The translations under genes were made by a program, and so were the position numbers. 64,000 nt of DNA from assembly GCA_944371995.1 (NCBI GenBank), contig CALVYD010000004.1, positions 11,077 to 75,076 of the forward strand, in the 5' to 3' direction. How positions within the stretch are numbered: position 1 is the stretch's first letter; the number at the start of each line of letters is the position of its first letter. Below are positions 22,381 to 38,194 of this stretch, in pieces. Below the pieces are notes generated by a model, which was not told the origin of the DNA, searched no databases, and saw only the letters and a program-made list of their open reading frames with translations. The DNA is from an uncultured Bacilli bacterium (GTDB lineage Bacteria; Bacillota_I; Bacilli_A; RF39; UBA660).

Positions 22381-22487
22381 CATCTTTTTTGTTATATAAT
22401 TATAATCTAAAGATATTTAGGGGAGATTTAAGTTTACTTAATTCTTATATTTTGGTATAATCTATGTTGTATTTGAGAGGTGGTTTT

Positions 22488-23903
22488 ATGCATTTACCTG
22501 ATTATAAAGAAGCTAGGAAAAGAGATATTAGACCTTATCATAGGGTAGAGTTTCAATTTGATGATAAAGTAAAAAATAAGTATCAAGGAAAGACTTTTTA
22601 TTTGAAAACTTATGGTTGTCAAATGAATGAGCATGATAGTGAAAATATTGAGGCGTTACTTGAGTTTTTAGGATTTGCTAAAGTGGATGATTATACTGCT
22701 GCAGATTTGGTGCTTTTAAATACTTGCTCTATTCGTGAGAATGCACATAATAAAGCTTTTGGTATGCTTGGTAGACTTAAGCATTTAAAACAAGAGAAAA
22801 AAGATTTAATTGTTGGATTGTGTGGATGTATGGCTCAAGAAGCTAGTGTTGTTGATACAATACTTCAAGATTATCGCTGGGTCAACTTTGTATTTGGTAC
22901 TCATAATATGTATCAGTTACCTGAAATTATTGATAAAGCAATTGAAGAGAATAAACAGCAGATTGAGGTTTTCTCTCGTGAGGGTGATTTAGTAGAAGGT
23001 GTTCCTGTGCGAAGAGTTAATGACTATAAAGCGTATGTTAATATTATTTATGGTTGCAACAAGTTTTGTACATATTGTATTGTTCCTTATACTAGAGGTC
23101 GTGAGAGAAGTCGTTTAAAAGAAGATGTGTTAAAAGAAGTACAAGAGTTAGTTCGTGATGGTTATAAAGAAGTTACTTTACTTGGTCAAAATGTTAATGC
23201 TTATGGTAAAGATATTTATGATGATTACACTATGGCTAACTTATTAGAGGATGTTGCTAAAATGGGAATTCCTAGAATTCGTTTTACTACTTCACATCCT
23301 TGGGACTTTACAGATGAAATGATAGATGTGATTGCTAAATATGATAATATTATGCCTAGTGTTCATTTACCTGTACAAAGTGGTTCTAGTCGTATTTTAA
23401 AACTTATGGGACGTAGGTATACGAAAGAAAGTTATTTAGAGCTATTTCATAAGATTAAAAATAAAGTTCCTAGAGTTAGTATTTCTACTGATATTATTGT
23501 AGGATTTCCTGGAGAGACGGAAGAAGACTTTTTAGAAACTTTAGATTTAGTTCGTGAATGTCAGTATGATAATGCGTTTACATTTATTTTTTCCAAAAGA
23601 GAAGGAACTCCTGCTTGTAGGTTAGCAGATCCTGTACCTTTGAAAGAAAAAGAAGAGCGTCTTCAGAGATTAAATGAAGTTGTTAATCATTATTTCTTAG
23701 AAAATAATAAGAGGCTTGTCGGATGCGAACTTGAAGTTTTAGTAGAAGGTATTTCTGATAAAAAACATATGTATTATGGTTATAGTGATACTAATAAGTT
23801 AATTAATTTTTCTAGTGAAAAAGAACTTAAGCCAGGTGATATTCTTATGGTAAAGATCGTGGATGCAAAAACATGGAGTTTGGACGGTGAAATGGTTGAA
23901 TAG
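22488..23903 (+). CDS. miaB: tRNA-2-methylthio-N6-dimethylallyladenosine synthase
   Basis: TYGCQMNEHDSE, NTCSIRE, GCMAQ, GCNKFCTYC radical-SAM motif, TRAM domain. Confidence 0.97.
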   Translation: MHLPDYKEARKRDIRPYHRVEFQFDDKVKNKYQGKTFYLKTYGCQMNEHDSENIEALLEFLGFAKVDDYTAADLVLLNTCSIRENAHNKAFGMLGRLKHLKQEKKDLIVGLCGCMAQEASVVDTILQDYRWVNFVFGTHNMYQLPEIIDKAIEENKQQIEVFSREGDLVEGVPVRRVNDYKAYVNIIYGCNKFCTYCIVPYTRGRERSRLKEDVLKEVQELVRDGYKEVTLLGQNVNAYGKDIYDDYTMANLLEDVAKMGIPRIRFTTSHPWDFTDEMIDVIAKYDNIMPSVHLPVQSGSSRILKLMGRRYTKESYLELFHKIKNKVPRVSISTDIIVGFPGETEEDFLETLDLVRECQYDNAFTFIFSKREGTPACRLADPVPLKEKEERLQRLNEVVNHYFLENNKRLVGCELEVLVEGISDKKHMYYGYSDTNKLINFSSEKELKPGDILMVKIVDAKTWSLDGEMVE

Positions 23904-24213
23904 GGCACTAGATGAAGTTGTTTCTGTTATTACTTCTAGCAGAGATTACCATATTTGTATAGAATTACAGGAGAAGATGAAGAAAAATCAAAATTTGATG
24001 GACTTAATAGATAAGTTAAAAGATGCCCAGAAAAGATATGTAAAAAGTAATTATGATAAAAGTATTAAGGATGAATTGGATTTGTTAGAAGAGAAGCTTC
24101 AACAAGTACCAATCTATGTATCTTATATGGCACACTTAGAAAAAGTAAATGATATGCTTTCTTATGTAGAAGATGACTTAAATCAGTATTTTTATCAATT
24201 ATTAAATTCTTAG
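23863..24213 (+). CDS. YlbF/YmcA (RicA-like) regulator
   Basis: Helical protein ending P....Y......VND.L; miaB-ymcA-cotE synteny; true start probably near 23890. Confidence 0.7.
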   Translation: MQKHGVWTVKWLNRALDEVVSVITSSRDYHICIELQEKMKKNQNLMDLIDKLKDAQKRYVKSNYDKSIKDELDLLEEKLQQVPIYVSYMAHLEKVNDMLSYVEDDLNQYFYQLLNS

Positions 24214-24215
24214 TA

Positions 24216-24258
24216 GAGAACTATAATGAAATAGATATTTCGTTTAGTTCTTTTTCTT
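24216..24258 (+). terminator. Terminator after the ymcA-like gene
   Basis: AGAACTA..GAAAT/ATTTC..TAGTTCT hairpin plus T-run. Confidence 0.6.
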
Positions 24259-24357
24259 TGGAAAAAGTGTGTTGCTGATTTTCTTTATATATCAACAAAA
24301 ATTATAAAGTTTAAATTAGACATCGACGTATATTTTGAAAGAAACAGTATAAATTTC

Positions 24358-24386
24358 TTGATTTTTTTCTTTTCAAATGGTATAAG
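24358..24386 (+). promoter_or_regulatory. Sigma-A promoter driving the CRISPR mini-array
   Basis: TTGATT-17nt-TATAAG with extended -10 TG; ends 7 nt before repeat 1. Confidence 0.65.
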
Positions 24387-24393
24387 ATAAGTA

Positions 24394-24633
24394 GTTCTAC
24401 ATTACCTATGAAGGCTTTGAAACTCAACTGTTTCTTCAACTTCTTCTACATCAATTATATTGTGTTCTACATTACCTATTGAGGATTTTAAGCTCTTTAA
24501 TGAATGCATTTTCTGCAACATATAATTTTGTTCTACCTTACCTATTAAGGCTTTGAATCTCCATTAAAGCTATAATCCATTCCGTCAAGTCCGTTGATAA
24601 CTAGTTCTACCTTACCTATTAAGGAATTTGTTT
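24394..24633 (+). CRISPR. Orphan CRISPR mini-array: four 30-nt repeats, three spacers (40, 36, 44 nt)
   Basis: Repeats at 24394 GTTCTACATTACCTATGAAGGCTTTGAAAC, 24464 GTTCTACATTACCTATTGAGGATTTTAAGC, 24530 GTTCTACCTTACCTATTAAGGCTTTGAATC, 24604 GTTCTACCTTACCTATTAAGGAATTTGTTT; GTT...GAAAC ends are typical of Cas6-processed class 1 repeats. Confidence 0.85.
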
Positions 24634-24640
24634 CAAAATA

Positions 24641-24675
24641 AAAGTCAAGGAGTAGTTGCTGTCCTTGATTTTTTT
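24641..24675 (+). terminator. Rho-independent terminator closing the array
   Basis: AAGTCAAGGA-10nt-TCCTTGATTT followed by T-run. Confidence 0.75.
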
Positions 24676-24689
24676 GTTGCTATTTTTGG

Positions 24690-24717
24690 TCAAATATATT
24701 AGTTTGCTGCATATATT
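24690..24717 (+). promoter_or_regulatory. Putative SigE-like promoter of cotE
   Basis: TCAAATA-13nt-CATATATT; cotE is SigE/SigK-driven in Bacillus. Confidence 0.55.
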
Positions 24718-24735
24718 AAGTTAGGAGGGGTAGTT

Positions 24736-25266
24736 ATGTCTAGTTATAAAGAAATTGTTACAAAAGCAGTTATAGGAAAAGGTAAAAAACTTTTTACTAC
24801 GGATAATACCATTAAAGTTAGTAATTTGCCTTCTACTATTTTGGGATGCTGGGTAATTAACCATAATTTTCAAGGTCAAAAAAATGGTGATCAAATTACT
24901 ATTACTGGTAGTTATGATGTTAATATATGGTATTCTTATGATCGTGATACGAAGACTGATGTTGTAAAAGAGACAAATCGTTATCAGGAAGTTGTTCGTA
25001 TGAGAAGCAGGGATGATAGCAGTGATAATGAAGAAATTATTGTTCGTAGTTTAAAGCAGCCTACATGTTCTAACATTACTATTGATGGTAATGACATTCA
25101 TTATACAATTGAAAAAGAACTTGGTATCGAGTTAGTTGGTGATGTTAAAGTAAAAATAGAGGCTGACGAAGAGGAAGACCCTTGGGATGAAATTGTTGAC
25201 GAGTCTCAAGATAATACTGTAACTGATGATATTGATGAAGATTTTATACAAGATAATACCATTTAA
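24736..25266 (+). CDS. cotE: Outer spore coat morphogenetic protein CotE
   Basis: YKEIVTKAVIGKGKK, PSTILGCWVINH, G.YDVNIWYSY; acidic tail. Confidence 0.92.
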   Translation: MSSYKEIVTKAVIGKGKKLFTTDNTIKVSNLPSTILGCWVINHNFQGQKNGDQITITGSYDVNIWYSYDRDTKTDVVKETNRYQEVVRMRSRDDSSDNEEIIVRSLKQPTCSNITIDGNDIHYTIEKELGIELVGDVKVKIEADEEEDPWDEIVDESQDNTVTDDIDEDFIQDNTI

Positions 25267-25335
25267 TGTCTTTGATAGCACTTATGAGTGCTATTTTTTT
25301 TAGTATGTGTTATCCTTTTAGTAAGGAGTGTTGTT

Positions 25336-25821
25336 ATGGGAAATAAAAAATATATATTTATTACTATTGGTATTGTTTTGGGAGTTTTTGCTTTTCTATT
25401 TTGGATATTTTTTGTGGTTATTTCTTCTCGTAGACCTAATTATACTTTTTCTCTTTCTAATGCCGGTACTGATTGTAGTAAACGGGAGTATTCTCTTTAT
25501 TATGAAAAGAATGATGTTAAGTACTATAGTGCTTGTTATGATAAGGTGAATGTTATAGAGGAGAAGTTTTTATTTAAAAAGACGGATGATATTAAAAAAT
25601 ATATTGATAATGGTCAGTTACTTTCTATTTTACAGAAGTTTGATATGGATAAATGGAAATATAGTGAAGGAGTACAAACAGATTATTACGTTTTAGATTC
25701 TTCAAAAAACTTAATTATTACTAGGTGTAGTACTGAAACTCGGGATACTTATTATTTTCATCGTGGTACTGATGGCTATTTTTGTCAGTATTTTGTGGAT
25801 TTTAATATTCGGCAAGAATAG
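25336..25821 (+). CDS. Hypothetical membrane-anchored protein
   Basis: AAGGAG RBS; N-terminal TM; Cys-containing extracellular part. Confidence 0.65.
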   Translation: MGNKKYIFITIGIVLGVFAFLFWIFFVVISSRRPNYTFSLSNAGTDCSKREYSLYYEKNDVKYYSACYDKVNVIEEKFLFKKTDDIKKYIDNGQLLSILQKFDMDKWKYSEGVQTDYYVLDSSKNLIITRCSTETRDTYYFHRGTDGYFCQYFVDFNIRQE

Positions 25822-25837
25822 TGTTATCAAAAAAAGG

Positions 25838-25866
25838 TTGACAGATAGCTTTTTTTTTATTATACT
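25838..25866 (+). promoter_or_regulatory. Sigma-A promoter of rpsP
   Basis: TTGACA-17nt-TATACT. Confidence 0.8.
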
Positions 25867-25896
25867 ATATTTGCATTTAAGAAATGGAGGGATATT

Positions 25897-26172
25897 ATGG
25901 CAGTTAAAATTAGATTAACAAGAATGGGTGCTAAAAAGAAACCTACTTATAGAATTGTTGCAACTGACTCTAGACGTCCTAGAGATGGTCAATATATTGA
26001 ATTAATTGGTACTTATGCACCTGTTGGAGAATGTAAGGTTAATATCAATGAAGAAGTAGCTTTAAAATGGTTAAATAATGGAGCTATTCCTACAGATACA
26101 GTTAAGAGTTTATTTACTAAAGCTGGTATTATGAAAAAGTTTACTGAATCTAAAGAAAAGAAGGATAAATAA
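25897..26172 (+). CDS. rpsP: 30S ribosomal protein S16
   Basis: [31 protein letters not shown]. Confidence 0.98.
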
Positions 26173-26174
26173 TT

Positions 26175-26423
26175 ATGGATTTAGTTCAGCTAACTGAGGA
26201 GATTGTTAAATCATTAGTAGTAGATCAAGATGCTGTTAGTGTGAAAGAGTTTCCTACAGAAGAAGATAATGTTATCTTGATACAAGTAATTGTTGCGGAA
26301 GCTGATATGGGAAGAGTTATTGGTAAAGGTGGAAGATGTGCTAATGCTATTCGTACTTTGGTTCAAGCAAGTAGTGCTTTAAAAGATAACAGGTATGTTA
26401 AAATTGATATTGATAAGTTTTGA
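26175..26423 (+). CDS. khpA: KH-domain RNA-binding protein KhpA
   Basis: DMGRVIGKGGRCANAIRT; directly after rpsP. Confidence 0.93.
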   Translation: MDLVQLTEEIVKSLVVDQDAVSVKEFPTEEDNVILIQVIVAEADMGRVIGKGGRCANAIRTLVQASSALKDNRYVKIDIDKF

Positions 26424-26486
26424 GAAAGCAATTTTGCTTTCTTTTTCTTTTGTCTTGTTATATAATATTTTTGAGGTAGAAGAATA

Positions 26487-27197
26487 ATGATGAATGATTT
26501 AGTGATTCCTAACCATATAGGTATTATTATGGATGGGAATGGTCGCTGGGCCAAAATGCGTGGACTTCCGCGTAGTGCAGGGCATAGAGAAGGTGCTAAT
26601 ACATTAAAAAAACTTTGCCTTTATGCTGAGAGTATTGGTTTAAAATACTTATCTGTTTATGCGTTTTCCACAGAAAATTTTAAACGTAATAAAATAGAAG
26701 TTGATTTTTTAATGAACTTATTTGTTGATATGTTTAAAAAAGAGTTTCAAGAAATTATGGATCGTCAGGTAAAGGTTGTTTTTTCTGGGCGTAGGGATCC
26801 ACTTCCTAAAAAAGTGTTAGAAGCTATGGATGAACTTACTTTCAAGACCAAGGATAATACTCGTACAGTACTTAATGTCTGTTTAAATTATGGTGGTCAG
26901 TTTGAGGTTTTGGATATGACCAAAAAAATTGTGCAACAAGTTCAGAATGGTAGTCTTAATGTGGATGATATTAATTTAGATACGATATCTGCTAATCTGT
27001 ATCAAGATTTACCACCGCTTGATTTGGTAATTCGTACGAGTGGAGAGTTACGTCTTAGTAATTTTATGTTATATCAAGCAAGCTATGCAGAATTTTATTT
27101 TCCAAAGATTCTGTTTCCTGATTTTTTAGAGAATGAATTTATGGAAGCAATCGTAGAATTTAATAAAAGAACTAGAAAGTTTGGAGGGAATGTATGA
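26487..27197 (+). CDS. uppS: Undecaprenyl diphosphate synthase
   Basis: HIGIIMDGNGRWA, YAFSTENF, IRTSGELRLSNF. Confidence 0.97.
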   Translation: MMNDLVIPNHIGIIMDGNGRWAKMRGLPRSAGHREGANTLKKLCLYAESIGLKYLSVYAFSTENFKRNKIEVDFLMNLFVDMFKKEFQEIMDRQVKVVFSGRRDPLPKKVLEAMDELTFKTKDNTRTVLNVCLNYGGQFEVLDMTKKIVQQVQNGSLNVDDINLDTISANLYQDLPPLDLVIRTSGELRLSNFMLYQASYAEFYFPKILFPDFLENEFMEAIVEFNKRTRKFGGNV

Positions 27198-27994
27198 AAA
27201 AACGTGTACTTAGTGCTATTGTTATGATATTGATTTTTGTTCCATTATTAATTATTGGAGGTAAGGCATTTGCTATTTTTATGACTATACTTGCTGCTTT
27301 AGGATTATATGAATTAATTCATATTCGAGAAAGTAAAAAAGAGTTTCCATTCTTAATGAAGATTTTTGCTTATGTTATGGTAGTATTCTTTTCATTATCT
27401 CATTTTAACTCAATTACTTTTAGTTATACTATGGATTACCGAGTAGTGGCTTTTATGATTTTTGCCTTTTTATCACCTATGGTATTTATTCATGATTTTA
27501 AAAAATATAATTTAAATGATGCTTTATTTTTGATAGGATCAGTATTATTTATTGGTTTAAGTTTTAATTTATTTATTATTTGTCGTAATTATGATATTAC
27601 TTATCTTATTTATTTATTACTTATTACAACACTTACCGATACTTTTGCTTTGTTTACTGGTATGTTAATTGGTAGGCATAAATTGTGTCCTGTTGTTTCT
27701 CCTAAAAAGACTGTTGAAGGACTTATTGGTGGAACATTTGTTGGTACATTTGCTGCTACTGCCTTTTATGTTACGGTAATAGATCCGTCTATGTCTTTGG
27801 CATTTATTGTGATTATTACTATTATCTTATCTTTATTGGGACAATTAGGAGATTTAGTATTTTCTTCTATAAAAAGATATTATGATAAGAAAGATTTTTC
27901 TAATTTGATTCCAGAACATGGAGGAATATTAGATAGATTTGATAGTTTAATATTTGTTGTTTTAGCATTTATTATTTTTTCTAGTGTATTATAA
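27194..27994 (+). CDS. cdsA: Phosphatidate cytidylyltransferase
   Basis: DTFA..G...G, SPKKTVEG, SSIKR...KKD...IPEHGGILDRFDS. Confidence 0.95.
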   Translation: MKKRVLSAIVMILIFVPLLIIGGKAFAIFMTILAALGLYELIHIRESKKEFPFLMKIFAYVMVVFFSLSHFNSITFSYTMDYRVVAFMIFAFLSPMVFIHDFKKYNLNDALFLIGSVLFIGLSFNLFIICRNYDITYLIYLLLITTLTDTFALFTGMLIGRHKLCPVVSPKKTVEGLIGGTFVGTFAATAFYVTVIDPSMSLAFIVIITIILSLLGQLGDLVFSSIKRYYDKKDFSNLIPEHGGILDRFDSLIFVVLAFIIFSSVL

Positions 27995-34644: not shown

Positions 34645-35664
34645 ATGAATATATATAATTTAACCAGGGATGAAATGGAAGAATATTTTGTAAAGCTAGG
34701 ATCTAAAAAATTTCATGCTGATCAGTTGTTTTCTTGGCTTTATGAGAAACGTATTTCTTCTATTTCAGAGATTACAAATATTAAGAAGGAATTACTTAAT
34801 CAAGTTAGCTCTGATTATTCTTTTTCTAAATTAAATCTTGTTCAAGTAGAACGAGATGTTGATGTTTGTAAATATTTATTTGAACTTAGTGATGGTGAAC
34901 ATATTGAAGCTGTATTAATGATGCATGATTATGGAAACAGCGTTTGTATTTCTAGTCAAGTTGGTTGTAATATGGGATGTAGATTCTGTGAATCTGGTAG
35001 AAGAAAAAAAGTACGTAATTTAGAAACCTGGGAAATGGTTACACAACTTCTAATGATTGAAGAGGATTTAGGTATGCGAGTAAGTCATGTTGTTGTCATG
35101 GGAATTGGTGAACCTTTTGATAATTATGACAACTTATTAAAATTCTTTTTAATTATTAATCATCCTAAGGGTCTTGCGATTGGTGCTCGTCATATTACTG
35201 TTTCTACTTGTGGAATTGTTCCTAAAATATTAGAGTTTAGTAATTTTCCATTACAAATTAATTTAGCAATTAGTTTGCATGCTCCTAATGATGAACTTAG
35301 AAATCAAATTATGCCAATTAATAAAGTTTATCCTTTAAAAGAGTTAATTCATGCGTTAGAGATTTATTTAGAAAAAACAAATCGACGTATCACATTTGAA
35401 TATATTTTACTTTCTGGAGTGAATGATACTGACTCTTGTGCTTTAGAATTAGCTAGATTAGTTGGACATTTAAATTGTTATATTAATTTAATTCCGTATA
35501 ATGAGACAAATAATTTAGAATTTAGACGAAGTAATACTGTTCAAATTATGAAGTTTTATGATATACTTAAGAAGAATAGACTTAATGTCACAATCAGGAG
35601 AGAGTTTGGTAGCAAGATTAGTGCTGCTTGTGGACAACTTAGAAGTAAGAAGGAGGAGTTATGA
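34645..35664 (+). CDS. rlmN: Dual-specificity RNA methyltransferase RlmN
   Basis: CISSQVGCNMGCRFC, MGIGEP, ISAACGQL. Confidence 0.96.
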   Translation: MNIYNLTRDEMEEYFVKLGSKKFHADQLFSWLYEKRISSISEITNIKKELLNQVSSDYSFSKLNLVQVERDVDVCKYLFELSDGEHIEAVLMMHDYGNSVCISSQVGCNMGCRFCESGRRKKVRNLETWEMVTQLLMIEEDLGMRVSHVVVMGIGEPFDNYDNLLKFFLIINHPKGLAIGARHITVSTCGIVPKILEFSNFPLQINLAISLHAPNDELRNQIMPINKVYPLKELIHALEIYLEKTNRRITFEYILLSGVNDTDSCALELARLVGHLNCYINLIPYNETNNLEFRRSNTVQIMKFYDILKKNRLNVTIRREFGSKISAACGQLRSKKEEL

Positions 35665-36404
35665 AATCTTTTTATTTAACAGATGCAGGAAAAGTTCGCA
35701 GCCATAATGAAGATAGTGTCATTATTGTTAAAAATCAAAATGATGATTATTTAATGGCCATCGCAGATGGGATGGGAGGTCATTCTGCTGGAGAAGTAGC
35801 TAGTTCTATTGCGATTGGCTATTTAGGAAAATATTTTAAAGAAACTTTTTTAAATATGAGCAAAGTGGATGCTGTTAACTGGATTCGAGATGCGTTTAGT
35901 GAGATTAACACTTTAATTTTTCAGCATGAAAAAACACATCCTGAAAGTAAAGGAATGGGAACTACTTTAGTTCTTGCAATACTTACTAAAGATTATCTAT
36001 TATTTGGTAATGTAGGGGATTCTAGTGGCTTTGTTATGAAAGATGATAAACTTCATAAAGTAACCTACGACCATACTTTAGTTAATTTACTTGTTAGTGC
36101 TGGAGAGCTTACCAAAGAAGAAGCTAGTGTTCATCCTAAAAAAAATGTATTAATGAAGGCACTAGGTGCTGCTACTTCTGTTGAAGTTGATATTTTTGAT
36201 TGTGATATGGATATTACGGAGATACTTCTTTCTAGTGATGGACTTACTAATATGTTAGATAAAGATCAGATAGAAAAAGTTTTACTTAGTGATAATGACG
36301 TTGAAGATAAAGTTATTAAATTAATTCAAAAAGCGAATAATCGCGGGGGAACTGACAATATTTCGGTGGCTTATTTAATCCGTAGTGAAGAAGGTGACGA
36401 GTAA
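35661..36404 (+). CDS. prpC: PP2C-type Ser/Thr phosphatase
   Basis: RSHNED, ADGMGGH, GDS, SDGL, GGTDN. Confidence 0.93.
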   Translation: MKSFYLTDAGKVRSHNEDSVIIVKNQNDDYLMAIADGMGGHSAGEVASSIAIGYLGKYFKETFLNMSKVDAVNWIRDAFSEINTLIFQHEKTHPESKGMGTTLVLAILTKDYLLFGNVGDSSGFVMKDDKLHKVTYDHTLVNLLVSAGELTKEEASVHPKKNVLMKALGAATSVEVDIFDCDMDITEILLSSDGLTNMLDKDQIEKVLLSDNDVEDKVIKLIQKANNRGGTDNISVAYLIRSEEGDE

Positions 36405-38194
36405 TGATTACAAAGGGGCAAAAGATAAATGATCGTTATGAGATTATTCGTTCTATTGGTGAAGGTGGTATGGCCAATGTTTATCTTGGCTATGATACAA
36501 TACTAGATCGTAATGTAGCAATTAAAATTTTACGAGGAGATTTGTCTAGTGATGAAAAATTCGTTAGGCGTTTTCAGCGTGAAGCTTTATCTGCTTCTAG
36601 TCTTGCACATCCTAATATTGTTGAGATGTATGATGTAGGTGAAGATGATGGTGTTTATTACATTGTTATGGAATATGTGGAAGGAAAGACATTAAAACAA
36701 TTGCTTAAAAAACGTGGAAGTTTAACATTGTCGGAAGCTATTGACATTATGTTGCAGCTTACTGATGGTATGGCACATGCTCATGATTCTTATATTATTC
36801 ATAGAGATTTAAAACCGCAAAATGTAATGATTAAAGATGATGGTCAAATTAAAATAACAGATTTTGGTATTGCTATGGCACTTAATGCTACGCAACTTAC
36901 ACAAACAAACTCAGTCATGGGATCTGTTCATTATTTGCCTCCAGAACAAGCAAGTGGTAAAGGTTCTACTATTAAGAGTGATATTTATTCCATGGGAATC
37001 ATTTTTTATGAATTACTTACTGGTAGCTTACCTTTTAAGGGAGATAATGCTGTTGAGATTGCTTTAAAGCATATGCGAGATCCACTCCCTAGTGTTAGAG
37101 AAGATAATCCGGCTATTCCTCAAAGTATTGAAAACATTATCTTAAAAGCAACTGCTAAAAATCCTAAGAATCGTTATGATGATGCTAGACAAATGCATGA
37201 GGATTTACTTACCGCTTTAGATGATGATCGTATGAACGAACCTCCTTATAAATATCCTTATCCTGAACATGATACTGAGTCCACTAAGAACTTAAAGAAA
37301 ATTGAAGATATTGATAAAAATGGTGATCAGGAAGAAGAGGAAGAACCTGTTGCTACTAAGATAGAAGATAAAGGGGATAAAAAACGTAAAAAATTAATTA
37401 TTATATTATCTATTGTTTTTGGAGTGTTGGTTCTTGGCATTATAACGTTTGCCTTTATTATTCCTGCTGTTACTGCTTCTAAGCCAGTTATTGTTCCTGA
37501 TTGCGAAGGAGATAAAGTTAGTCAGTGTGAAAAGAAACTACAAGAGGCTGGATTAGAGGTTCGAACTAATATTAAAAGTGTGGCATCTTCTAAAATTGAA
37601 AAAGGTTTAGTAGTTCGTACTGATCCAGAAGAGGGACGAAGTGTAAAAGAGGGTACGAAAGTTACTATTTATAAATCTAGTGGTGAAGAAACTTTTGAAA
37701 TTAAGGATTACAGTGGAGAAAATTATATTGAGATTCAAACAATTTTGGAGACACAATATGGATTAAATGTTACAGTTGAAAAACGAGATGTTGATGCTAG
37801 TGATAGAGAATATGATCCACAGGAGATTATTGGTCAATCTTTAGCCGAAGGTAGTGAAGTAAAAGAAGGAGATTCTATTATTTTATATATTCCTAATATC
37901 GTAGAAAATTTCCCTGATATGGCTGGTTTAGGATGGGGATTAGCAGATGCACAAGCTTTCTGTGATAAATATGGATTAACTATTAGTGTTGAATATCAAG
38001 AGACTACTGCTTATGAAGAAGGTAAAATAATTGATCAGTCAAGAGCTGCTGGTAGTCCTATTGTTAAAGGACAAACACTTACTGTTACGATTGCTCAAAA
38101 ACCAAAACAGCAGTCAACACCATCCACACCATCTACTGGAGATGACGATGAAGAGACTACAACTCCATCAGATACAAATAATGGAACAGAATAG
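36404..38194 (+). CDS. prkC: PASTA-domain Ser/Thr kinase
   Basis: GEGGMA, HRDLKPQN, DFG, TM, three PASTA-like repeats. Confidence 0.95.
   Translation: MITKGQKINDRYEIIRSIGEGGMANVYLGYDTILDRNVAIKILRGDLSSDEKFVRRFQREALSASSLAHPNIVEMYDVGEDDGVYYIVMEYVEGKTLKQLLKKRGSLTLSEAIDIMLQLTDGMAHAHDSYIIHRDLKPQNVMIKDDGQIKITDFGIAMALNATQLTQTNSVMGSVHYLPPEQASGKGSTIKSDIYSMGIIFYELLTGSLPFKGDNAVEIALKHMRDPLPSVREDNPAIPQSIENIILKATAKNPKNRYDDARQMHEDLLTALDDDRMNEPPYKYPYPEHDTESTKNLKKIEDIDKNGDQEEEEEPVATKIEDKGDKKRKKLIIILSIVFGVLVLGIITFAFIIPAVTASKPVIVPDCEGDKVSQCEKKLQEAGLEVRTNIKSVASSKIEKGLVVRTDPEEGRSVKEGTKVTIYKSSGEETFEIKDYSGENYIEIQTILETQYGLNVTVEKRDVDASDREYDPQEIIGQSLAEGSEVKEGDSIILYIPNIVENFPDMAGLGWGLADAQAFCDKYGLTISVEYQETTAYEEGKIIDQSRAAGSPIVKGQTLTVTIAQKPKQQSTPSTPSTGDDDEETTTPSDTNNGTE

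Follow-up and report, generated by a model that had tools for sequence, protein, structure and literature searches.

Orphan CRISPR arrays are common and their roles are little understood, and viruses and mobile elements carry mini-arrays and solitary repeat units. The mini-array analyzed here resembles the latter in its few repeats and in having no adjacent cas gene, whereas its flanks are core housekeeping and sporulation genes. Both arrays of this kind and the action of Cas6 in trans are already known (PMC12669027, PMC3886909), and according to the former most type III loci rely on Cas6 provided in trans. Among the closest described cases is Anabaena PCC 7120, whose orphan arrays one study assigned to two Cas6 enzymes (bioRxiv 10.1101/2020.04.14.041012); as there, our array lies far from a cas operon, has a Cas6-type repeat and has a Cas6 encoded elsewhere as the presumed processor. 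In contrast to Anabaena, the three assemblies that carry spacer-bearing arrays of our type (G000, G007 and G016) contain no effector, and their cas6 is a lone single-gene cassette. The genome of Anabaena PCC 7120 reportedly contains effector complexes. RliB of Listeria is likewise small, always found at one place in the chromosome and without adjacent cas genes, so that any activity would need cas genes in trans (PMC3886909). According to the same paper, RliB is ubiquitous at one locus and processed by PNPase, whereas the present cassette occupies its site in 3 of the 21 genomes of the genus and has a Cas6 dedicated to it.

The nearest complete system is type III-D with RT-Cas1, described for Vibrio vulnificus (PMC6821258) and also found in G731, a genome of another genus. 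The best identity to our Cas6 was at most 35% among 400 genomes of the class and 52% among 400 genomes of the family, the latter in G731. In that genome cas6 lies beside RT-cas1, cas2 and a 12-repeat array, and the locus also encodes Csm6, a short Cas10, Csx10, Csx7, Csx19 and a TIGR03986 RAMP, a gene content that indicates a type III-D locus. The likeness extends to the related 30-nt repeat, which has TACATTA and the 3′ end TTTGAAAC in common with that of G000, and to the variable spacer lengths (29-48 nt in the arrays of our genus versus 36-42 nt in G731). Unlike G731, the genomes G000, G007 and G016 lack Cas10, Csx10, Csx7, Csx19, the TIGR03986 RAMP and RT-Cas1/Cas2. Our preferred reading, to which we assign a probability of about 0.5, is that the array represents what is left of a type III-D-like system, orphaned but still cut by a retained Cas6, with no user in the genome.

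The window, that is, the whole 64-kb stretch of DNA analyzed (G000:C4:11077-75076), belongs to a 1.72-Mb metagenome-assembled genome (MAG) of 71 contigs and 29% G+C, with 94.6% completeness and 5.1% contamination, and the public runs in which it occurs are mostly chicken-gut metagenomes. A repeat search of the window identified four direct repeats of 30 nt each, with start-to-start distances of 70, 66 and 74 nt, and the 16-nt core GTTCTACMTTACCTAT occurred four times at no more than one mismatch, against 0.00 copies expected from 100 shuffles. On the plus strand, repeat 1 (24394..24423, GTTCTACATTACCTATGAAGGCTTTGAAAC) is followed by spacer 1 (24424..24463, 40 nt), repeat 2 (24464..24493) by spacer 2 (24494..24529, 36 nt) and repeat 3 (24530..24559) by spacer 3 (24560..24603, 44 nt), and repeat 4 (24604..24633) is the degenerate terminal repeat. 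All four repeats differ from one another, yet the 5′ 16 nt and the CCT-N4-AGG motif are retained in all of them, while drift is seen in the last 8-9 nt, which read TTTGAAAC, TTTTAAGC, TTTGAATC and ATTTGTTT in repeats 1 to 4. When the consensus 3′ end was derived from the repeats of G007 and G016, repeat 1 was the sole G000 copy that retained it, and the degenerate end of repeat 2 was of the same variant type as that preceding the shared spacer in G007. The sequence-only reading had described four repeats with three spacers between ymcA and cotE, repeats that are non-identical but keep the 5′ part and CCT-N4-AGG in all four, and a Cas6-type repeat family; positions and core count agree with the first description, direct reading bears out the second, and the third was upheld as well.

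The locus is very probably a genuine CRISPR array. It has at least three direct repeats within the 23-47 nt range, and the spacers between them are unique and similarly long; among relatives, the repeats are conserved and the spacers variable, with older spacers shared at the trailer end; and a leader at one end is matched by a degenerate terminal repeat at the other, the last repeat being degenerate in G000, G007 and G016 alike. The array gave no match to the Rfam CRISPR-DR families at E up to 1, and the CCU-N4-AGG stem of repeat 1 folds at only -1.4 kcal/mol, not better than shuffles. The three stem pairs CCT/AGG correspond to TTC/GAA in the G731 repeat, changes that in this single comparison may be compensatory. 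The 3′ end of the repeat agrees with the 8-nt tag left by Cas6 enzymes (PMC5965381). No further copy of the core or repeat was found in the G000 genome, which therefore holds only one such array, nor was an anti-repeat, the tracrRNA-like partner, found there. A search of public genome contigs with the repeat pattern recovered the G016 and G007 contigs alone, and three viral-contig loci and one metagenome locus retrieved from public collections were rejected as isolated chance matches, not arrays. A crude k-mer scan of G000 also returned two regions, C5:1982-2138 and C16:9764-9935, in which three copies of a 12-mer are spaced as in a CRISPR array.

Cas6 is encoded on contig C8 of G000 (C8:24860-25597; L003:10861-11598) by a monocistronic, single-gene cassette, a 245-aa ORF whose homologues start at Met4. 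The protein scores 103 bits against PF01881 (cut-off 23, E 2e-29) and 109 bits against TIGR01877 (cut-off 58.65), aligns full-length to Pyrococcus Cas6 3PKM (E 1.6e-13), and carries His46 and the G-rich loop GLGSKNSQGFG, both invariant across 16 Cas6 homologues. The protein thus shows the marks of a Cas6 endoribonuclease, namely a profile score that exceeds the curated cut-off, a G-rich loop near the C-terminus and a conserved His, and His46 is probably the catalytic His, following work on Pyrococcus Cas6. Metagenomes commonly encode homologues with 46-94% identity (83 proteins, E up to 1e-10). The neighbours of cas6 are unrelated to it: small ORFs flank it at one end, and genes of the RhuM and beta-lactamase families at the other. 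The RhuM-family and class A beta-lactamase-family genes separate cas6 from a methyltransferase gene in G000 only; in G007 the methyltransferase gene directly follows. Between G000 and G007, dN/dS of cas6 was 0.17 at a dS of 0.455, and neighbouring genes ranged from 0.09 to 0.33. The gene is under purifying selection, which, acting across a dS of about 0.45, argues that Cas6 still does something. We consider this constrained solo cas6 the feature most worth attention. A solo or stand-alone cas6 gene is absent as a phrase from the titles and abstracts covered by our literature search, and the ‘standalone Cas6’ of PMC5965381 denotes an enzyme outside the effector complex and not an isolated gene.

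The absence of cas genes near the array, noted from the sequence beforehand, was borne out for the 64-kb window, as none of its 63 ORFs of at least 90 aa matched the Cas models of PADLOC. Extended to the genome, the term ‘cas-less’ does not hold, because G000 encodes the solo cas6 on C8 and a type II-C cas9-cas1-cas2 set on C18. The latter locus (C18:7684-15309, L004) comprises cas9 (1,221 aa), cas1 of type II (TIGR03639, 267 bits) and cas2, together with a 36-nt repeat that is present in 22 copies and has no relation to that of the mini-array, and it looks type II-C because csn2 and cas4 are absent beside cas9-cas1-cas2. A 596-aa Ser/Thr kinase gene in the window (36404-38194) strongly matches the PADLOC PD-T4-6 models, and the ORF that is its 5′ neighbour (35661-36404) weakly matches the candidate-defence model PDC-M21C (E 3e-11); we set the kinase aside as a defence gene on account of its housekeeping-like setting and the weak match of its neighbour.

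For the effector, the models for RAMP (PF03787), DevR (PF01905), Cas7 (PF05107), Cas5 (PF09704), Cas10 (TIGR02578) and TIGR03986 gave no match in G000, G007 or G016, in a search where the positive controls from G731 and G012 were recovered for TIGR03986, the Cas10 protein and PF05107, while PF09704 and TIGR02578 detected their control genes weakly. When all Cas proteins of G731 and G012 were compared with G000 by tblastn, only Cas6 and an unrelated reverse transcriptase were recovered, and the same proteins gave nothing below E 0.09 on the 5.8-kb contig that carries the G016 array. Class 1 effectors (Cas7, Cas5, Cas10 or Cas8/Cas3) are thus absent from the assemblies of G000, G007 and G016, whose completeness is 94.6%, 92% and 77%, respectively, and the type III-D set (Cas10, Csx10, Csx19 and fused RAMPs) is absent from these three and from G012. 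A matching Cas1-Cas2, of type I/III or with RT-Cas1, is also absent, as G000 has the type II Cas1 only and G007 and G016 have no Cas1. The genome had been proposed for a check of cas6, cas10, cas7 and cas8 and of further repeat copies, and this check returned cas6 alone, with neither a class 1 effector nor a second copy of the repeat. The suggestion that the guides serve a distant or non-canonical effector accordingly found no class 1 effector gene to support it in G000, G007 or G016, all of them MAGs and incomplete.

This incompleteness is relevant because, elsewhere in the genus, class 1 operons were seen only on short contigs (5.5-5.6 kb) that break off at both ends. One is a type I-B fragment of G012 (C69, L065; 5.5 kb, 24.7% G+C) with cas7, cas5b, cas3, cas4 and cas1b, which has no counterpart in any other genome of the genus, and the other is a type III-A-like fragment of G005 (C52, L084; 25.5% G+C), which is probably native. 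Contig C97 of G008 (L083) carries type III-D-like genes and was rejected as a system of the genus, since its 46% G+C against 29% for the genus makes contamination probable. An effector operon of G000 could therefore be unassembled or unbinned as well. Array and solo Cas6 may then be the part of a functional split system that resides on the chromosome, still immune and still updated, with the effector and RT-Cas1/Cas2 on a plasmid, a phage or an island missing from the MAG and using the crRNAs made by Cas6 in trans. We regard this as the main rival, though less probable than an orphaned remnant. It agrees with the low dN/dS of cas6 and with the common use of Cas6 in trans by type III loci (PMC12669027), while the lack of an effector or matching Cas1 from as many as three assemblies, and the retention of the consensus 3′ end by repeat 1 alone in G000, speak against it. 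If the effector does sit in unbinned contigs, the locus would be an ordinary split type III system and a caution against calling MAG arrays ‘cas-less’; if closed genomes confirm that there is none, the constraint on the solo cas6 would suggest that Cas6 and array function as a pair, alone or with mobile effectors.

Under the preferred reading of an orphaned remnant, the repeat would belong to a Cas6-dependent class 1 family, the nearest full context of which is type III-D with an RT-Cas1 adaptation module, and the array would have become separated from its effector and adaptation genes in this lineage. A transcript of about 290 nt would arise from the array's own promoter, and probably by read-through from ymcA too, and the solo Cas6 is predicted to cut it 8 nt before each repeat end, which would yield units of 70, 66 and 74 nt with the 5′ tags UUUGAAAC, UUUUAAGC and UUUGAAUC. 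Because no protein that would use these guides is present in the assembled genome, a residual, slowly decaying array with its processing enzyme is most likely, not working immunity, and we infer that the effector was lost in G000 as opposed to unassembled. Signs of decay are the mutated 3′ ends in three of the four G000 repeats, the collapse of the cassette in G012, which also lacks cas6, and the absence of the cassette at this site from G016 and from a strain about 94% identical. The constrained cas6, a recent difference in leader-end spacers, the well-conserved promoter and terminator, and the incompleteness of the MAGs are points against the orphan reading.

The history of the locus was followed in 40 relatives searched with the ymcA-cotE intergenic region, the genus being represented by 21 genomes. 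At the locus, G000, G007, G012 and G016 form a tight clade with CotE 99-100% identical, and these four close species give an unusually clear comparison, two having array and cas6 at fixed sites, one a collapsed repeat without cas6 and one cas6 with the array elsewhere. Where G000 has the leader, four repeats and three spacers between ymcA and cotE and cas6 on C8, G007 has the same leader, five repeats and cas6 at the same site as in G000. Its three leader-end spacers are unique, its fourth is spacer 2 of G000 with one difference (35 of 36 nt, 97.2% by blastn), and its terminal repeat is identical; spacer 1 of G000 is found in neither G007 nor G016, and spacer 3 is not in G007. In G012, only the leader and the terminal repeat remain and the site corresponding to cas6 is empty. 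G016 has a clean intergenic region of 116 nt with a homologous terminator, and the first 42 residues of cas6, 100% identical, at a contig end; its array, with five repeats and four other unique spacers, is found elsewhere, at a contig end with different surroundings. The cassette is thus at the ymcA-cotE site in three of the 21 genomes, one of which has the single repeat, and at another site in a fourth, and the repeat is altogether absent from the other 17. The three genomes with cas6 (G000, G007 and G016) are exactly those with spacer-bearing arrays, but as close kin they are not three independent observations. In most other members of the genus, the ymcA-cotE gap holds an antisense gene of about 212 aa and unassigned family (L011, L024 and others), of which G006 has a remnant only.

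Persistence of the same spacers at ymcA-cotE in relatives, which had been put forward as a check, was therefore seen for spacer 2 in G007 only, the other spacers differing and G012 having none. Strain-specific presence and repeat decay, the features by which a dead relic was to be recognized, were in part observed. In two RNA runs (X15 and X16), contigs of the array-less strain of about 94% identity have 84 other letters in place of 24214-24708, the cassette of about 493 nt. A DNA run from an independent study yielded a contig of 1,896 nt with the same array and seven differences over 1,835 nt, none of those listed lying within the array, and DNA run X3 spans a few short pieces of the window.

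When synonymous divergence between G000 and G007 was determined around the array (window 22464-27994 versus L029), dS was 0.079 for part of miaB, 0.040 for cotE and 0.010 for the next ORF, compared with 0.31-0.45 for uppS and cdsA, 2-3 kb further away. This contrast suggests a recent exchange of the segment, that is, a recent recombination tract between G000 and G007 that includes the array. Since the leader-end spacers of G007 differ even though the flanks are nearly identical, the turnover of spacers was recent, and with no matching Cas1 it implies that an adaptation module or donor arrays were available not long ago. The claim that the array no longer acquires spacers is accordingly supported by its unchanged state in the independent metagenome but not by the three different leader-proximal spacers of G007. 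Both observations bear on the split system as well, for which three spacer sets in three close species, with the trailer-end spacer alone shared and flank dS down to 0.01-0.08, count as favourable and the unchanged array of the second study as unfavourable. Another way to account for these data is a minimal module of solo Cas6 and promoter-fused mini-array, kept by selection without a class 1 effector, either as a guide bank for visiting effector and adaptation modules or as a crRNA decoy occupying incoming complexes. It would explain the constrained cas6, the spacer turnover without a resident Cas1 and the movement of the cassette between sites; nevertheless, we consider it unlikely.

The spacers were also compared with possible targets. 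Against 50,697 phage records, the G000 array region gave low-complexity matches only (E 5e-3 to 0.8) and the G007 array region none, and viral contigs, scanned for exact copies of three of the ten distinct spacers of the genus (spacer 3 of G000 and one each of G007 and G016), returned no match. Among the 400 family genomes, partial matches of 24-78 nt at 74-96% identity were found, the majority of them in the low-complexity stretch of spacer 1, and the 40 relatives contained no convincing protospacer. The 24/24-nt match of spacer 1 in G028, which ends after 24 nt, and the 20/20-nt match of G007 spacer 1 in contig C11 of G000, which ends after 20 nt and amounts to 23/35 overall, were judged to be chance. 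A metagenome contig of run X5 matches 24423-24455 alone, that is, 32-33 nt of spacer 1, with unrelated flanks, and is a possible protospacer of that spacer. The purine fraction was below 0.5 in eight of the ten distinct spacers of the genus and in eight of 11 spacers of G731 (16/21), compared with a mean of 0.564 for the coding strand of G000; the sample is small and the control, a type II array with 6/21 below 0.5, is itself skewed, so that the pyrimidine richness hints only weakly at guides that are antisense to mRNA. For a split system that is still immune, the co-occurring X5 contig and the pyrimidine-rich spacers are in favour, whereas the lack of a protospacer in the phage records, viral contigs, family genomes and relatives searched is against.

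Upstream, the array is preceded by an AT-rich leader of 180 nt (24214..24393, plus strand), which starts right after the stop codon of the ymcA-like gene (23863..24213, plus strand; Com_YlbF family, PF06133, E 4.7e-10) and is conserved in G007 and G012 according to a three-way alignment; it does not resemble the sequence that precedes the array in G016. In G007 and G012 the leader is longer by about 110 nt, bounded by the direct repeat TATATATCAAC, a segment missing in G000 (L006:1405-1515 and L007). Direct reading identifies a promoter-like site on the plus strand (24358..24386) with TTGATT at 24358-63, a spacing of 17 nt, TATAAG at 24381-86 and TG at 24378-79, and repeat 1 begins 7 nt past the -10 hexamer. 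The -35, TG and -10 elements are conserved in the alignment as TTGCAT and TATAAG in G007 and as TTGCTT and TATAAA in G012. A consensus scanner missed the site because its rule requires a -10 hexamer ending in T. The promoter with an extended -10 proposed at this place is thus present as promoter-like sequence, conserved in two sister species. Its conservation in three species also argues against a fully dead locus, a very unlikely reading in which the array is untranscribed or unprocessed and cas6 is retained by chance or for an unrelated reason. Degenerate repeats and a cassette that is collapsed or missing in relatives would fit such a relic, but cas6 is an intact gene under constraint, and all three genomes that have it also have spacer-bearing arrays.

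Downstream, repeat 4 is followed by an intrinsic terminator, a hairpin with a T-run (24640..24675, plus strand), at -14.6 kcal/mol (z -4.03), and none of 200 shuffles was as good. A homologous hairpin lies directly 3′ of ymcA in G016, which has no array at that site, so the hairpin is the ancestral terminator of ymcA and not the cassette's own, and the cassette is inserted between the ymcA stop codon and this terminator, as the comparison of the two genomes indicates. Upstream of the cassette, the hairpin that had been taken as an insulating terminator is weak (-6.1 kcal/mol, z -1.5), with 19 of 200 shuffles as good. The unit described as self-contained is hence not fully so, as the strong hairpin after repeat 4 belongs to ymcA and the upstream hairpin is weak.

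This placement inside the ymcA transcription unit, the conserved promoter fused almost directly to repeat 1, and the retention of cas6 without an effector over a dS of 0.45 would suit a non-immune role, in which Cas6 and the mini-array produce antisense regulator RNAs or a Cas6-titrating RNA, perhaps linked to sporulation through the position between ymcA and cotE. Such a role is unlikely, because the spacers have no extended match to their own genome (the best, 18/19 and 20/22 nt, are at chance level), the spacer content varies between species in a manner ill-suited to a conserved regulator, close relatives with the same ymcA and cotE lack the cassette, and the array of G016 is at a different locus. 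The downstream flank, cotE (24736..25266, plus strand; PF10628, E 1.3e-51), encodes a protein 100% identical in G007 and G016. Just past cotE, 25246-25303 gave a weak Rfam match to the Listeria sRNA sbrA (28.8 bits versus a gathering threshold of 45, E 0.0035), which is probably a chance match or a terminator.
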